Source: an uncultured archaeon (lineage in GTDB: Archaea; Asgardarchaeota; Lokiarchaeia; Sigyniarchaeales; SOKP01). From it: DNA of 64,000 nucleotides. Below the pieces are notes generated by a model that saw only the letters and a program-made list of their open reading frames with translations, was not told where the DNA came from and ran no database searches. The stretch's first letter is position 1. Each line of letters begins with the position of its first letter. Position numbers and translations under genes: made by a program. Location: the NCBI GenBank assembly GCA_964632315.1, contig CAZWEM010000018.1:1-64000 (forward strand), given 5' to 3'. Shown piece by piece: positions 12,429 through 22,187 of the stretch.

Positions 12429-12526
12429 GCTTTTTTTTTCACCCGATAATTTGTATGAAATTATTTTAAAATTGGATGAAGTTATATTTAACTATTTATT
12501 GATTTTTGAAATAAAATAGTTATACC

Positions 12527-13114
12527 TTATTCAAGAATTTTATTTTCTATTAAAAGCGTCAATCTAAACGAATTATGATTTGGGGAATTTATATTTTCTT
12601 TAATGCTTATAGGTCTAACTATCTTTTCAGAAGGTAGGGATTTTTCTAATGAATTAATAAGAAAAGCTTTGAAAAGATCGCATGAAATTCCGATTTCAGA
12701 ACAAAAAACACATTTTCTTACGTCAATTACATATTTAATATCTGATTTCTCTGAAATTTCAACTTTCCAATTCGTTTCTATCAAGCGATTTATATCGACA
12801 ATAATCTCTTCGAATTTTTTCCCAAATGGATATAAATAAAATGAGAATTTTCGACCTATTTCATATAATAATTGAGATGAATCATAAAGTAAACAATTTT
12901 GCGCAGTAATTATCTTTTTAAATGAAAAAAAATCAATTGTCCCATCCGGATCCACATCTCGAAGATCTTTTAAATCTAATAATTCTGCTTCTCGTAAAAT
13001 AGATTTCATTCCATCATAATCAAGTGTATCTAAATAAGATTGGAGGAGTGCAGTTATTACGCGATTCTTAACACTACCTCTATATGCTCCAATCATCTCA
13101 GAATTATTATCCAT
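12527..13114 (-). CDS. V4R-like (4-vinyl reductase/Bet3-fold) domain protein, divergent
   Basis: GMKSILREAEL..., LYEIGRKF, CVFC...SCDLFKAFL pattern. Confidence 0.5.
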   Translation of the reverse strand: MDNNSEMIGAYRGSVKNRVITALLQSYLDTLDYDGMKSILREAELLDLKDLRDVDPDGTIDFFSFKKIITAQNCLLYDSSQLLYEIGRKFSFYLYPFGKKFEEIIVDINRLIETNWKVEISEKSDIKYVIDVRKCVFCSEIGISCDLFKAFLINSLEKSLPSEKIVRPISIKENINSPNHNSFRLTLLIENKILE

Positions 13115-13318
13115 AAGCGATCGTATACTTTTTATTTTTCTACAAAGCGGAATTAATACTTTTTCGACTAGCCTAATCTTCTCTCTAATATCTTTAGTCG
13201 GTTGAATGCTTTTAAGATTTTATTTTTAGTTGAATTATCTGATTATAATAAGAACTATTACAATTCTATTAATTAAATAAAATTAAGATTAAAAATAATA
13301 AGATATTAAAAAATTAGG

Positions 13319-15019
13319 TTATTCTTCAACAGTTTTAAGAATGTCTTCAATCTCAGATTGAATGACTTCTGCTTTCTTTGCTTGTTCTCCTTTTATGGCA
13401 TTTCCAAGCTCGATCCGTTCACGATGGAGCGTATTCATGGCGCAAAATGGAACCTCTAATACCCTAGCATTGTCGTCGGGATCAATAACTCCATAATGAA
13501 CCAAGCACCTGCAAACTCTCTGGAGATCAAAGTTATATGCATCCTGGAAGTGCATGGCACTAATTAATAAGTTTTTAGTATGTAAGAAATTAGCTGCTGA
13601 TGCAAGATTTGGAGCCATTACCAATCGAGCAAAACTCTGGAACGTTTGACTGGTTAAGATTTTTGCAGGATCCTTGACATATCTCATTGCCCCAGCCAAG
13701 TAGTAAGCTTTCATCATCTGACGATATCCTAGATTTGTCATGTCATCGATAAACTTACCAATAGTATTTGGAACGGAACCAAAATCTTCTAGATTAATAC
13801 CTTTTAGAAAATTAGTAGGTTTAGGAACCTCTTGATTTTGTACCATATCATATACTTTATTGGACCATCGAACGAGGCCCTCAGTATCGAAGTAATTTTC
13901 AATAGGCTCCCATTCATTGTTTTTATTAACAATACAAATTGTTGCAAATCCACAATCTTTATGACTCGTCATGGAAAATTCTGGAACATCATCAAACCAA
14001 GCAAGTAACCGAGTCATTTTTGCAGTCGTTGCTATAGGATAAAATCGCGCGATCGCATTGTTTGTAGCTTTATTAATAGCCACCTTTAAATCTGAGGTGG
14101 TATATCTAAGATCCATTAATTCTTCGAAGCTTATTCGACCACATAAAGATACTGGTTGGAAAACAACACCTGAGACCACATCCGTATTTTCTTTAGCAAA
14201 ATTCAATATAGGTCCTACTTGATGATCATTAACACCTTTGGCAACTGTTGGTACTAATACAACTCCAAAAAATCCTATTTTTCTTGCATTTTCAATTACC
14301 TTTTTCTTTAGGGGCCATAGATTTACTCCCCTAACTTTCTTCCATGTTTCAGGATCGTCAGTAGCATCAAATTGGAGATAACAAGCTTTCATACCTGCGT
14401 CCATGCACTTTTTCATGAATTCGGGAGATTTTCCAAATCTTACTCCATTAGTTGTAACCATGACTTCAACAAAACCAAGCTCAACTCCCTTTCTTATGAT
14501 ATCTGGAAGATCATTTCTTACTGTTGGTTCTCCTCCAGATAATTGGAGTAATACAGGAGATATTGGTCTCATTGATCTAAAATGTTCCATTATTTGAACT
14601 ATTTGGTCAAAAGTAGGTTCGACAACATAACCTTTTGCGCTAGCGTTTGCGAAACATATTGGACAAGTGAGGTTGCAACGATTCGTAATATCAATCAAAG
14701 CAATATTTGGAGCGCTTTTATGATTTTGACATAAACCACAATCATTTGGGCATCCACTGCTAATATCCTTAATACCAGAGTTTACAAATTCTGGTTTCGT
14801 TGAGTTATCAATAGTAGAACCTAAATCATCAGTAAAAGTTTCAGCCCATTTATATTCTTCGGGATCAATGGAGAGCTTGTCCTTGAATTCTCCGTGTTCA
14901 TCGCAATTTTTCCTCATCATGACCCAATTTGTCTTTGGATCAACATAAATTTCCGCGTCAATGGTCTTCATGCATTCTGGACAAATGCTTTGCGTGCGCC
15001 TTATAATTTCTTCAGTCAT
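13319..15019 (-). CDS. tes: Tetraether lipid synthase (Tes/GDGT-MAS) radical SAM enzyme
   Basis: N-terminal SICPEC...CDEHG, GCPNDCGLC..H, CNLTCPICF (CX3CX2C), FQPVS..GR, MHFQDAYNFDLQRV.RC..HY, PFCAMN. Confidence 0.85.
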   Translation of the reverse strand: MTEEIIRRTQSICPECMKTIDAEIYVDPKTNWVMMRKNCDEHGEFKDKLSIDPEEYKWAETFTDDLGSTIDNSTKPEFVNSGIKDISSGCPNDCGLCQNHKSAPNIALIDITNRCNLTCPICFANASAKGYVVEPTFDQIVQIMEHFRSMRPISPVLLQLSGGEPTVRNDLPDIIRKGVELGFVEVMVTTNGVRFGKSPEFMKKCMDAGMKACYLQFDATDDPETWKKVRGVNLWPLKKKVIENARKIGFFGVVLVPTVAKGVNDHQVGPILNFAKENTDVVSGVVFQPVSLCGRISFEELMDLRYTTSDLKVAINKATNNAIARFYPIATTAKMTRLLAWFDDVPEFSMTSHKDCGFATICIVNKNNEWEPIENYFDTEGLVRWSNKVYDMVQNQEVPKPTNFLKGINLEDFGSVPNTIGKFIDDMTNLGYRQMMKAYYLAGAMRYVKDPAKILTSQTFQSFARLVMAPNLASAANFLHTKNLLISAMHFQDAYNFDLQRVCRCLVHYGVIDPDDNARVLEVPFCAMNTLHRERIELGNAIKGEQAKKAEVIQSEIEDILKTVEE

Positions 15020-17983: not shown

Positions 17984-18511
17984 ATGACGGAACCCGATTA
18001 TGTAATCAAGATTTGTTTGCTTGGGGAGGCAAATGTTGGAAAAACATCACTTGTTTATCGCTTTATTGAAAATAAATTCAGAGATAATTATAAAAGTACA
18101 CTTGGAGTTAATCTCCTTAAAAAAGACTTGAATATTGAAGATTACGGCGGAGTAGCTGCCACAATCTGGGATCTAGGTGGTCAAGAAAGTTTTAGATCCC
18201 TCCGAAAACTCTACTTAGAGGGAGCGAATGGTGCTCTAGTTATCTTTGATTGGACTCAAAAAGAAAGCTTCCTTAAATTAGAAAGTTGGATACAAGATTT
18301 TAGATTAGAGAGAGAAAATGAACCAATTTTATTGATCGGAAATAAAGATGATTTAAAAGATAAGGAAAAGGTATCTAAAGATGAAGCATTAGAATTAGCA
18401 CGTCGTTATAAGCTAAAATTTCTTTCTACCTCAGCTAAAACAGGTTCTAATGTAGAAGAAGCATTTAATACTGTTACTAAGACGATTTTAAAATCCCAAT
18501 TAGCTAAATAG
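17984..18511 (+). CDS. Rab-like small GTPase
   Basis: GEANVGKT, STLG, WDLGGQE, GNKDD, STSAK. Confidence 0.93.
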   Translation: MTEPDYVIKICLLGEANVGKTSLVYRFIENKFRDNYKSTLGVNLLKKDLNIEDYGGVAATIWDLGGQESFRSLRKLYLEGANGALVIFDWTQKESFLKLESWIQDFRLERENEPILLIGNKDDLKDKEKVSKDEALELARRYKLKFLSTSAKTGSNVEEAFNTVTKTILKSQLAK

Positions 18512-18709
18512 TCTAAGGATAGCTTGTTTTTTAATATATTATCGAAAATGTTGCTGAAATATTTTTTAAAATTAACAATTATTTATAAAGCATTTATAAA
18601 TGATCATATATTTAAATAAAATTATATATAAAATATGACTTCGTCATTAAAGATAATTTTACAATTATTTAACTATATACAAATCATATTTGGAACTTAT
18701 TGATTTATC

Positions 18710-19396
18710 ATGCCTGAAGAAGAAGATGATCATGAAGAAGAGGAGGAGGAGGAAGAAGAAGAACTCTCCTCTGAAGAAGGTTTAGATTATAAAATTGAAA
18801 ATGTTGTTGCAACCGTTACTGTTGAAATCACTGAAAAAATTGATTTAAATCAAATTGCAAGAAAGCATGCTGAAGTAGAATATAATCCAGAGAGATTTCC
18901 TGGATTAGTCATGCGAATTGAGAAACCCAGAGCAACTATTCTCATATTTTCCACCGGAAAAATGGTTGTTACTGGATTACGTAAAGCGTCTGAGGCTGAA
19001 AGAGTGGTTGATAAAGTTGTTAAAAATATTCGAAAAGCAGGAATAAAATTATCTAATCCCGAGATCACCATTCAAAACATAGAAAACTTAATATATCATT
19101 AAGTTTATGGATTTGCGAGTGGCGATCTTCATACGAACATCGATCTAAATATGGCTGCAATTGTTATGGAGTATGCCATGTATGAACCAGAAGTGTTTCC
19201 CGGGTTAATTTATAGAATGCAAGAACCTAAGACTGTATTTTTAATATTTTCAACTGGTAGAATAGTATGCACCGGAGCCAAGCAAAAAGAAATTGTAAGA
19301 GATGCCGTAAAAAAACTAAACCAACAAGTACGTGATCTAGGAGTTGCAAAAAAGGAGCTTATAGATAGCGATTACCAAGATATCACGTTTATTTAA
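18710..19396 (+). CDS. tbp: TATA-box-binding protein, join(18710..19082,19113..19396), 218 aa after removal of a 30-nt intron
   Basis: Repeat 1: IENVVAT...YNPERFPGL...[12 protein letters not shown]. Repeat 2: IQNI|VASGDL...[13 protein letters not shown]...[14 protein letters not shown]. Both halves are in one frame, separated by 30 extra nt containing TAA. Confidence 0.9.
19083..19112 (+). other. Putative bulge-helix-bulge (tRNA-type) mRNA intron in tbp
   Basis: aaaacttaatatatcattaagtttatggat; 9-bp intron stem 19084-92/19098-106; 3-nt bulges 19081-83 and 19111-13; central helix 19077-80/19107-10; exon-exon helix 19061-76/19114-29; excision gives ATA G|TT GCG = I-V-A. Confidence 0.85.
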
Positions 19397-19444
19397 ATTT
19401 TTATTTTCTATTTTTATATTTTAGTTGATTATGAAAAGCAGTGC

Positions 19445-19770
19445 TAATCATAAATTCGATAATCAATTTTCGGTAAGCCAATATTTCTAACCCCTTTCTC
19501 ATTTGGTGCCATCTTATTGTAAACATCTACAGGACTTTCATAGGGAATTTTACTCCTTAAACCTTCTCGATTTGCCAATAATCGTTCTTTAAAATCTTCT
19601 AACCATTTTTTCCGGATTTGAGCTAGTTCTTTGGATTGAAATTGATGAGCTTCATATTTATCAAAATTAGCATATTCTATAATTTTAAGTTTTAAAATTC
19701 TTAGGTATACATATCCCCCAAGCCATTAATTCATCATTCGCAAGCGGCTTAAATCCTAATCTTTTCCTTT
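19445..19770 (-). pseudogene. Start-less, possibly frameshifted gene remnant of unknown family
   Basis: Minus-strand open frame of ~90 codons (...KLKIIEYANFDKYEAHQFQSKELAQIRKKWLEDFKERLL...YRIYD*) with no ATG near its 5' end; a short open frame in another phase overlaps it upstream. Confidence 0.35.
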
Positions 19771-19940
19771 TTTCTTTTCAAAAAAATCTAAATTCTAATC
19801 CAATCTCTTCCTTTCAGAGAGAGATCTTTAAGTTATGGGAGGAGTCCCCCAAATTGAGGACATTCTTCTCCAGAATTTATTTAAGAATGTATAACATGAT
19901 AATAAATGATATTAAATTCAGACAAAAATCAATAAAGTGA

Positions 19941-22187
19941 TTGCATTTAATGACAAAAACGATTTTGATGAATAATAAATTAATGAAGGTCACAGTCATT
20001 ATATTATCTTTTATTATACTAAGTATTTTAACCTCCAATATCAGTTTAAACAAAAATGAAGAAAGAAACAATAGCGAACTATTTTCAGAGCCTTTAGCAT
20101 CAAGTTCAAAATCGTTTATTTCTATCTGGGATACAACCAAATCTGGTGTTAGTAGTAGCAATCAAGTTCATTTACCTTTATTATCGAGTGGAAAATATAA
20201 TTTTACGGTTAATTGGGGAGATGGAAATAATGACACAATTACGATCTGGAATCAAGGTTCTGTAACCCATACATATGCTACCCAGGGTATTTATACCATA
20301 AAAATATTAGGAAAGATTATTGGTTGGCAATTTAATTACCAAGGAGATAGGTTGAAAATACTTGAAATTCAGCAATTTGGATGTCTACAATTAGGAAATT
20401 TGGGAAGTTATTTTTATGGATGCCGTAATTTAGCACTCACCGCTACTGATAGTTTGAATTTGAATGGAACCACAAATTTAAGTTTAATGTTCGGAAACTG
20501 CCATAATCTTGGCAATAGTGGTGATTTTAATAAGTGGAATACGTCAGGAGTCACAGATATGTTCCAAATGTTTTATAACGCTCAAACCTTCAATTGTTCC
20601 ATAGATAACTGGGATGTCTCAAGTGTAACGACAATGGCAAGAATGTTTGTTGATGCTGACTCATTTAACCAACCCATTGGCAACTGGGTTGTTTCGAGTG
20701 TGATAGATATGAATTGCATGTTTTGCGGTGCTTATTCTTTCAATCAACCCATTGGCAACTGGGATGTCTCAAATGTGAGAGATATGTTTGAAATGTTTGG
20801 TGATACAATCTCTTTTAATCAACCCTTAAGTAAATGGGATGTATCGAATGTGACAGAAATGCAGGGTATGTTCGATCAAGCATTATCATTCAATCAACCC
20901 ATTGGTGACTGGGATGTTTCTAGTGTGACATCAATGGCTTTGATGTTTGGATGGGCTCTTTCATTCAATCAACCCATTGGCAATTGGGATGTATCTAGTG
21001 TAACAACAATGGCTTCAATGTTTGCTGGAGCATCCTCATTTAATCAACCGATTGACGATTGGAATGTCTCAAATGTAATAGATATGAGCAGTATGTTTGA
21101 TGATGCTGGTTCATTTAATCAATCTCTTGGATCGTGGAATGTTTCGAAAGTAATAACGATGAATAGAATGTTCTATGGAGCCTCCTCATTCAACCAACCC
21201 ATTGACTTATGGGATGTTTCGAGTGTAACGGATATGTTTGAAATGTTTTCTAGTGCCTCCTCATTCGACCAATCTATTGGTGATTGGGATGTCTCGAGCG
21301 TGGGAGATATGAGAAACATGTTTTATGGAATAGCTTTATCAACACCAAATTATGATAATCTTCTACTGGGTTGGTCGCAGTTATTGCTAAAAAATGAAGT
21401 AATTTTTGATGGTGGTGATTCCAAATATAGTAATGCTGCCAAAACCGCGCGGCAATACATTATAACTACTTTTGATTGGACGATCATTGATGGTGGTTTA
21501 ATATCACCGGGAGAATTCACCTTATTTTCAAATGCAGGCACTCCCGATATTGATGGACGTTTTAATCTTACCTGGACACCATCTTCAAGAGCAAGTAATT
21601 ATTCAGTGTATCAAAATTCGAGTTACATTACTCAAGTTAATGAAAACTTATCTCTCTTGACTGCTGAAATTACAAATTTAACCCACATGCTCACTGGCTA
21701 TAATGAAGGAACTTACTACTTTATCATTGTAGCAAATAATGATTTTGATTACACTCTTTCTAATTGTCTCACTGTTGTAGTGAGATTACCACCAGGAGAA
21801 TTCGAATTATCATCAGATTCAGGCACTCCCGACCCCGACGGATGTTTCAATCTTACCTGGACACCATCTTCAAGAGCAAATAATTATTCCGTTTACCTAC
21901 ATTCAAGTTATATTACCGAGCTAAATGCTAGTGTTTCTCTCTTAGGATCTGGAATTACTGATCTGAATTTAAAATTGATTGGTTACGTTGATGGTGCTTA
22001 TTATTTTATGATTGTTGCCTATAATAACTATGGTATAAATCATTCAAACTGTATTAATGTGATTGTAATGAAAACTCCAACACAACAACAACCTCTCCCC
22101 GCAATTCAAGGATACGATCTCTACTTGCTTATAGGAATAGCGAGCGTGATAACGACTTTAATGCTTCGAAAACGAGTCAAATCCTAA
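19941..22187 (+). CDS. BspA-family (DUF285) repeat surface protein with PKD-like domain, two FnIII-like modules and Loki-CTERM-like anchor
   Basis: N-terminal hydrophobic helix; VNWGDG...THTY; 25-aa FNQPIGxWDVSxVxxMxxMF repeats; duplicated PGEFxLx[18 protein letters not shown]; C-terminal IQGY-TM-RKRVK. Confidence 0.85.
20525..21330 (+). repeat. About 11 tandem 75-bp (25-aa) DUF285 repeats
   Basis: Recurrent ttcaatcaacccattggcaactgggatgtctc-like DNA. Confidence 0.85.

Follow-up and report, generated by a model that had tools for sequence, protein, structure and literature searches.

How can an archaeon produce its TATA-binding protein (TBP) when the gene for it carries an in-frame stop codon in the middle of a conserved strand? 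This question is raised by tbp on contig CAZWEM010000018.1 of assembly GCA_964632315.1, from an uncultured archaeon of the Lokiarchaeia, of which positions 1 to 64,000 (the whole stretch analysed, hereafter the window) were examined. As it stands in the DNA, the gene consists of two open reading frames (ORFs) in one frame with a single TAA, 18710-19102 (130 aa) and 19151-19396 (81 aa), and 30 additional nucleotides appear to be responsible for the interruption. The parts of the gene are the following:

18710-19396, + strand: tbp gene, interrupted by the 30-nt insert at 19083-19112
18710-19082, + strand: tbp exon 1, translated as an ORF and matching positions 1-84 of the Pfam TBP profile (E 1e-28)
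19083-19112, + strand: 30-nt intervening sequence (putative mini-intron), absent base for base in intronless orthologues
19100-19102, + strand: in-frame TAA in the insert, on the 3' arm of its hairpin
19113-19396, + strand: tbp exon 2, matching positions 9-84 of the Pfam TBP profile (E 8e-25)

Exon 1 encodes an acidic N-terminal tail, repeat 1, a linker and the beginning of repeat 2 as far as I-Q-N-I, together with the G of a Val codon, and exon 2 provides the remainder of this codon, repeat 2 and the stop codon, with no in-frame start codon in 19113-19150. Both halves score above the Pfam PF00352 cut-off for TBP repeats, and a single frame of 218 aa is obtained only after removal of the 30 nt. 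Deletion of 19083-19112 joins ATAG to TTGCG, with the Val codon split as G↓TT (the arrow marks the junction here and below), and the resulting protein has the same length as the closest intact TBPs (P0001 and P0003). The peptide across the junction, which includes IQNIVASGDL, is shared without change by the TBPs of the 24 species representatives of this genus and is almost the same across the order, and all of those genes are uninterrupted. In the mRNA, removal of the 30 nt would yield the exon junction ...CAAAACATAG joined to TTGCGAGTGG.... A previous reading of this DNA, made from the letters alone (the sequence-only reading), had described tbp as two same-frame ORFs separated by 30 extra nt with a TAA, had noted that their deletion restores IVASGDL, and had assigned the DNA to an Asgard host. 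All of its coordinates were reproduced by ORF calling, translation and Pfam searches, the restored peptide is that of the 24 congeners, and near-identical TBPs carry the labels Promethearchaeota or Lokiarchaeota. The alignment of related tbp genes that it had suggested as a check revealed a gap of exactly 30 nt at the same columns against contigs L047, L049 and L062-L065 and against 33 orthologues of the order, as well as covariation in the hairpin of the insert.

The insert is genuine DNA and not an artefact. An identical insert is present on the independent JGI metagenome contig L038, and Logan contigs from separate runs cover it without a difference; one of these (X2) bridges both insert junctions, and another (X3) spans the insert with just 22 nt on the 5' side. 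The confirmation at the DNA level that had been proposed earlier was thus obtained from independent contigs of separate runs carrying the same 30 nt. Moreover, the insert occurs as five sequence variants at the same site in at least 16 contigs (JGI, ENA and Logan) from different sampling campaigns. Allele A is that of the window, whereas the four other alleles (B, contigs L053, L054 and L066; C, L067 and L068; D, L069-L074; E, L075-L077) are represented by at least 14 JGI, ENA and Logan contigs and were recovered by a degenerate pattern scan combined with look-ups of truncated gene products. When 185,579 species genomes were scanned with the degenerate pattern for any insert of 12-42 nt at the tbp site, none was found; the same pattern picked up allele B in metagenomes. 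An assembly or sequencing error as the origin of the 30 nt would have to account for the same insert in contigs from separate runs and studies and for four more variants in assemblies from other sampling sites, and its probability is practically nil.

The five alleles also indicate whether the sequence beyond the stop codon is still read as protein. In the 39 nt between the junction and the next ATG, 15 sites vary among the five alleles without a single amino-acid change, and the silent changes include codon-family switches (Ser AGT/TCG, Leu CTT/TTA/TTG). As only about 23% of random changes in this stretch would be silent, the rough P for an all-silent pattern is 3e-10. The stretch lies after the TAA with no in-frame start codon in between and is nevertheless constrained as protein, which means that it is translated only if it is joined to exon 1. 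Between alleles A and B, 66% of the synonymous sites differ in exon 1 and exon 2 is saturated, whereas the non-synonymous divergence (dN) is ~0.06, with an omega of ~0.04 for exon 1; exon 2 has an equally low dN, and its saturated synonymous divergence precluded a ratio. The introns of these two alleles are identical at 26 of 30 positions. A full-length TBP is obtained from all four alleles for which a complete contig is available, and allele C is open to the end of its contig. Within the insert the encoded peptides differ among the alleles (ENLIYH, ENLIIH, ECLVYH, ENLIFH and ENLIVH) while compensatory pairs are kept, and the insert therefore evolves as RNA and not as protein.

The genome comprises 4.45 Mb in 119 contigs and is estimated to be 99.5% complete with 8.6% contamination. 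The search for another intact tbp, also suggested by the sequence-only reading, detected no other two-repeat TBP in this genome, and the sole other ORF with a TBP domain contains one repeat fused to an Lrp/AsnC regulator. Some contigs of the bin (C74, C80, C109, C112 and C113) are short and GC-rich compared to the 33% GC of the genome, and they probably account for the contamination estimate. Taken together, the exclusively silent changes in the flank, the compensatory changes in the hairpin and the sole two-repeat TBP indicate removal of the insert from the mRNA. These comparisons show that the gene can work only if the insert is removed, and there is a high probability that this takes place at the RNA level. 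The earlier claim that the tbp mRNA must be spliced is strongly supported by the constraint over five alleles, the compensatory changes, the exact lack of the 30 nt in very close relatives, the lack of a spare TBP and the presence of EndA alpha- and beta-like genes and of RtcB in the genome (see below).

The allele constraint and the hairpin covariation argue strongly against a pseudogene, a TBP made of two polypeptides and a translated insertion. A pseudogene with an insertion scar, such as a palindromic footprint, and with TBP function lost or supplied elsewhere, would be in keeping with the in-frame stop inside an essential strand and with the genus at large, whose 24 species representatives are all free of the insert; furthermore, a second copy may have escaped assembly in a bin of 119 contigs with 8.6% contamination. 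However, in five alleles synonymous divergence is saturated while the amino acids flanking the insert on both sides have hardly changed, compensatory changes have occurred within the insert, and the 99.5%-complete bin yielded no other two-repeat TBP. Neither a target-site duplication at the insert nor a second copy of it in the genome (with up to 3 mismatches) was found, and decay of the gene appears very improbable. Alternatively, the stop codon might be dealt with in translation, either by read-through, with an insertion of 10 residues, or by ribosomal bypassing as in phage T4 gene 60, and a stop codon in a stable hairpin does resemble known recoding signals. Bypassing is difficult to reconcile with the position of the insert, which splits the codon G↓TT so that a hop between matching codons cannot recreate Val, and there are no matching take-off and landing codons. 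Read-through would introduce 10 residues into the first strand of repeat 2, which is invariant in the orthologues examined, and it is the base pairs of the insert, not its encoded peptide, that are conserved; recoding of either kind is thus highly unlikely. Finally, TBP might be assembled non-covalently from a polypeptide of 130 aa and one of 81 aa starting at the ATG at 19151, since gene callers predict exactly these ORFs in many assemblies. This arrangement would leave 13 codons untranslated that are conserved at the protein level despite 15 variable nucleotide sites, and we attribute only a minute probability to it.

If the insert is removed from the RNA, which structure would direct its removal? 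A group I or group II self-splicing intron was discarded as a candidate, as the insert measures only 30 nt, compared to hundreds for such introns, and the search of 18600-19500 against Rfam (E <= 1) gave no relevant family match. For the 81-nt RNA a folding energy of -21 kcal/mol was obtained (z = -4.2), which none of 200 dinucleotide shuffles equalled. All possible ways to place a motif of the bulge-helix-bulge (BHB) type were enumerated, which revealed two competing registers, one that restores the protein (the productive register) and an alternative one. The structural elements are the following:

19084-19106, + strand: intron hairpin h', with a 9-bp stem (19084-19092 with 19098-19106) and a 5-nt loop (19093-19097)
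19077-19080, + strand: 5' strand of the central helix H in the productive register, ACAU, with 3 pairs plus A77.G110
19107-19110, + strand: 3' strand of the central helix H, AUGG (GUGG in three alleles)
19081-19083, + strand: 5' bulge AGA, with a predicted cut after 19082, set by protein homology
19111-19113, + strand: 3' bulge AUU, with a predicted cut after 19112; its intron bases are AU, UU or AA among the alleles
19061-19076 with 19114-19129, + strand: exon-exon helix h, 13 of 16 positions paired
19078-19081 with 19106-19109, + strand: alternative register of H, CAUA/UAUG, 4 of 4 paired, with bulges 19082-19084 and 19110-19112

The stem of the hairpin h' is perfect in the window, and 97.8% of its cells are paired over the five alleles, including two compensatory changes from A-U to G-C in allele C (86-104 and 91-99), whereas the loop and the last two intron bases vary freely. 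In the central helix, U80 remains paired, as G.U, in alleles with the A107G change. In allele A, 13 of the 16 positions of the exon-exon helix are paired, compared to 6-11 of 16 in the 33 intronless orthologues; over the five alleles 70% of the cells of this helix are paired and one pair is changed on both sides, in a test of helix maintenance that comprises five sequences only and has limited power.

Cuts after the second nucleotide of each bulge, a rule taken from PMC2738675 (here after 19082 and 19112), in the productive register recreate G↓TT and IQNIVASGDL; this register was picked with knowledge of the protein. The strict BHB motif is present only in the alternative register, with bulges GA↓A and GA↓U and an 8-bp intron stem, which would excise 19084-19111 (28 nt) and shift the frame. 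The junction is thus fixed by the protein and by the exact absence of the 30 nt in relatives, and the structural rule alone is insufficient to place it. The productive motif is a relaxed, HBh'-like BHB: its 5' bulge is well defined, a central helix and a strong helix within the intron are present, and its 3' site is loose. With regard to the sequence-only reading, its helices, bulges and counts were all correct (13 of 16 in h, 3 pairs plus an A.G in ACAU/AUGG, the 9-bp stem and the 5-nt loop), but its statement that the BHB rule predicts the junction independently was overstated, as the best canonical register corresponds to a 28-nt, out-of-frame excision.

Two other placements were rejected. 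A mirror-image topology, in which the central helix would be formed by the 5' end of the intron and exon 2, does not have the geometry of a BHB, where the bulge lies 3' of the helix on both strands. The segment CCAU at 19068-19071 pairs perfectly with AUGG at 19107-19110, in competition with ACAU, and both exon segments are invariant in all five intron alleles; the CCAU/AUGG helix is part of the minimum-energy fold of allele E. As a productive form this helix was dismissed, as the corresponding in-frame excision of 39 nt deletes QNIV.

Which enzymes could process such a motif was addressed by searching the genome for splicing proteins. It encodes two paralogues of the splicing endonuclease EndA. 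The first, on contig C28, has its nearest match in the catalytic subunit of the Aeropyrum pernix heterotetramer (3P1Z_B, E 8e-34) and retains the Tyr/His/Lys context, and the second, on contig C8, gives its best alignment with the M. jannaschii EndA and has the catalytic His replaced (KDSAKY compared to KEHSVY), as expected for a putative beta-like structural subunit. An alpha-like and a beta-like protein together suggest, from their sequences, an EndA of the broad-specificity (alpha-beta)2 type. RtcB is encoded as well, on contig C26 (568 bits). ARAGORN predicted 30 tRNA genes in this 99.5%-complete genome, 19 of them with introns, and many tRNA genes are probably too interrupted to be recognised by this program. 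Three of the tRNA 'introns' that it predicted exceed 1 kb. Heavily interrupted tRNA genes have been described in Asgard archaea, along with two EndA paralogues in most of the Asgard genomes surveyed (bioRxiv 10.64898/2026.10.13.758758).

We propose that 19083-19112 is an endonuclease-type intron with a relaxed BHB in the pre-mRNA of the only canonical TBP. In the folded transcript, the last exon-1 bases ACAU would pair with AUGG at the 3' end of the intron; this helix would be flanked on one side by the 3-nt bulge AGA and the 9-bp intron hairpin, and on the other side by a loosely structured 3' bulge or loop, AUU, closed by the exon-exon helix. A heterotetrameric (alpha-beta)2 EndA would cut after 19082 and after 19112, and RtcB would join the exons, restoring the Val codon G↓UU and with it an mRNA for the 218-aa two-repeat TBP, while the 30-nt intron would be released, probably as a circle. 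We infer EndA as the cutter, RtcB as the joiner and the exact conformer on which they would act. This is the best-supported pathway for the removal of the insert, and we consider it likely.

Another endonuclease and ligase pair, or some other activity recognising the hairpin, might remove the insert from the RNA instead. As a canonical BHB, the productive register is outranked, neither G110 nor A81 varies although both are unpaired in the productive model, and all the mini-introns examined here are 30 nt long, a length that is not demanded by the BHB model. We know of no other archaeal RNA cut-and-join system for such hairpins, however, which we count against this alternative, and the layout of the motif (a 4-position helix, 3-nt bulges and cuts two bases 3' of the helix) suits EndA. 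Furthermore, the genome has an EndA of the broad-specificity type, and the cbf5 introns likewise have relaxed motifs (PMC2738675). Removal by an activity other than EndA is thus unlikely.

Several observations weigh against splicing by EndA and RtcB as proposed here. The case for it is built on DNA comparison, and the sequencing runs listed for the locus included no RNA run. A metagenome scan for the allele-A flanks joined by 0-30 nt, able to catch either spliced junction, recovered no match, the unspliced form included, in a collection that may lack records close to this genome. The central helix of the productive register contains the non-Watson-Crick A77.G110 in all five alleles, and in all five the frame-shifting 28-nt register has a perfect 4-bp helix. 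By nearest-neighbour energies, this 28-nt register is the more stable one in alleles A, C and D (by 2-3 kcal/mol), and the productive register is so in B and E (by ~3 kcal/mol); as the sign of the difference flips between alleles, thermodynamics was abandoned as a means of choosing the register. Next to the 3' cut the exon-exon helix is poorly conserved, and in allele E it is almost absent. In addition, blind genome-wide censuses of three designs were made, one for BHBs combined with ORF fusion, one for hairpin-BHBs against decoy bulge sizes and one for in-frame interrupted frames. In none of them were motifs with 3/3 bulges in excess of decoys whose bulges measured 2 or 4 nt; for instance, 34 hits were obtained at score >= 17 compared to 31-41 in decoys. 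The AT-rich genome and gene boundaries swamp the signal of such a census, and the motif alone is weak evidence given the lack of excess over decoys.

How the intron came to be present in some lineages and absent from others was approached by comparing the alleles with their intronless sisters. The closest relative of allele A is the intronless L047, from the same metagenome as L038, whose upstream 3 kb are 95.6% identical to the window. The two coding sequences differ at 59 positions, nearly all synonymous and clustered at the junction, with a divergence of 22% within 50 nt of the junction compared to 7% in the remainder (Fisher p = 4e-5). In the vicinity of the junction, the intron-bearing allele D (6%) is a closer match to allele A than L047 is, whereas away from it allele A differs by 10% from D and by 7% from L047. 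A second clade, with B and E containing the intron and L062-L065 lacking it, shows the same pattern. One of its contigs, L066 (423-1142), is identical to the intronless L062 (1501-2190) from 400 nt upstream to position ~350 of the coding sequence, and identical to the intron-bearing L053 beyond this position; it represents a recombinant allele or else a chimera assembled from co-occurring strains. A predicted protein of 159 aa (P0203) resembles another intron/intronless chimera.

The end of exon 1 reads ACC-ATT-CAR-AAC-ATA-G in all five intron alleles, whereas AAC-ATA occurs at that position in 2 of the 33 intronless orthologues. Such a pattern would be expected if the intron was transferred or lost along with a short conversion tract, and also if selection at synonymous sites built the splice motif.

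Inserts of the same length were also found elsewhere in tbp and in another gene of this genome. A Loki-type tbp (L059:1042-1746, also in L060 and L061; GCA_004196275.1 and ENA assemblies) contains two 30-nt inserts at other sites. The one in YKIEN↓VVATV has no stop, so that the ORF reads through, and its canonical motif TTGA(AA↓A)...TCGA(AA↓A) ranked first, whereas the one in IDLN↓MAAIV has two stops and a relaxed motif. A further contig, L058, contains an insert at the YKIEN↓VVATV site with the motif ATAG(AA↓A)...CTAT(AA↓A). For two of these three other tbp inserts (first site, L058, L059), the correct junction comes first or second when placements are ordered by the canonical BHB rule. Many assemblies also contain 'TBPs' of 134 aa (P0218, P0122, P0123, P0127; L058:678-1119), whose sequence passes straight from the start of repeat 1 to the end of repeat 2 (↓MAAIVMEY). 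They are either real single-repeat TBPs arisen by recombination between the internal repeats or the result of an assembly collapse of the repeats.

In the genome of the window, a histone gene on contig C3 (100646-100675, minus strand, corresponding to L046:1470-1499) carries a 30-nt insert with an in-frame stop. The Pfam histone match ends at profile position 54 of 65, adjoining the insert, and the top-ranked BHB of the latter (GUAA/UUAU, bulges AA↓A and AU↓A) restores HANRKK↓ITKNDLLLAI. The tbp and histone cases suggest that tbp is one instance of a wider phenomenon. The histone gene has a second break near its 5' end, where the frame changes after MAKKKHRSRVKSTLSG. On the same contig, an E2 (UQ_con) gene (12500-13400, minus strand, corresponding to L041:1081-1981) is in several pieces in different frames, with a Pfam match restricted to profile positions 16-64 in an 86-aa frame, which is consistent with several short inserts. 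It is conceivable, although doubtful, that 30-nt mini-introns of the tRNA type are an actively turning-over class in Loki-type coding genes and that the competing registers act as a tunable gate on the supply of TBP. In that case the tbp mosaics, in which the surroundings of the intron have a history that differs from that of the remaining gene, would record gain, loss or transfer of an intron by recombination in the closest prokaryotic relatives of the eukaryotes.

Full-text searches of the literature yielded neither a described tbp intron nor BHB introns reported from protein-coding genes of Asgard archaea, in agreement with the earlier assertion that none was known for tbp. For more than 20 years, cbf5 of some Crenarchaeota was the sole archaeal coding sequence reported to need endonuclease-type splicing (PMC7714728, PMC2738675), and a study of 2020 still listed cbf5 as the only reported additional BHB intron while adding one case in a 5' untranslated region of Haloferax (PMC7714728). 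The introns of cbf5 pre-mRNA (Desulfurococcales and Sulfolobales; Watanabe 2002; Yokobori 2009, PMC2738675) mostly form unconventional BHBs that are cut by a hetero-oligomeric EndA between the second and third bulge residues. They resemble the tbp insert in these respects, namely the mostly relaxed motif, the type of EndA in the host and the position of the cuts, and also in being short, in lying within the coding sequence, in splitting a codon of a conserved motif and in their patchy distribution among relatives, which implies gain and loss. In contrast, tbp encodes a core transcription initiation factor and is found here in Asgard archaea (Promethearchaeota), mesophilic sediment dwellers; inserts of the tbp type are uniformly 30 nt long, and their presence or absence differs between lineages with ~95% identical flanks. 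Splicing of cbf5 has been shown experimentally, whereas that of tbp is deduced from sequence.

The non-canonical BHB introns of archaeal and Asgard tRNA genes have the same motif and presumably the same enzymes (bioRxiv 10.64898/2026.10.13.758758), but in tbp the host RNA is an mRNA and the exon half of the motif also encodes protein. Synonymous sites of tbp next to the intron would thus carry a splice-motif load. The BHB intron in the 5' untranslated region of Haloferax volcanii HVO_1309 is likewise an EndA substrate in an mRNA, confirmed there both in vivo and in vitro (PMC7714728). It differs in that it lies in an untranslated leader, so that its removal does not restore a frame, and in that it has a strict motif and is processed by a homodimeric EndA. 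In eukaryotes, HAC1 and XBP1 are spliced by Ire1 cleavage followed by joining by tRNA ligase or, in animals, by RtcB. As proposed for tbp, this splicing is independent of the spliceosome and acts on small stem-loops in the mRNA of a transcription factor, the unspliced form giving a truncated or different protein; Ire1, however, is unrelated to EndA and is regulated by stress, and no regulation is indicated for tbp.

The tbp insert brings a known kind of splicing to a gene and a phylum that are new for it. TBP nucleates every transcription initiation complex, and the Asgard group is the presumed origin of the eukaryotes. If the proposed splicing is true, no transcription in this cell can do without a tRNA-splicing step. 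The five alleles and their intronless sisters constitute a comparative series on how introns enter, persist in and exit from coding genes, and on how exon sequence is shaped as both codon and splice motif.

As to the surroundings of the gene, an Arf/Ras-family small GTPase gene is located directly upstream of tbp (17984-18511) and is syntenic in all relatives compared. Small GTPases of this family are a hallmark of the Asgard archaea. Downstream, synteny with the closest relative (19396-22187 compared to L047:3657-6657) stops just past the tbp stop codon, where a 748-aa DUF285 repeat protein is encoded in the window, and V4R, thioredoxin and Arf-like genes follow in L047.

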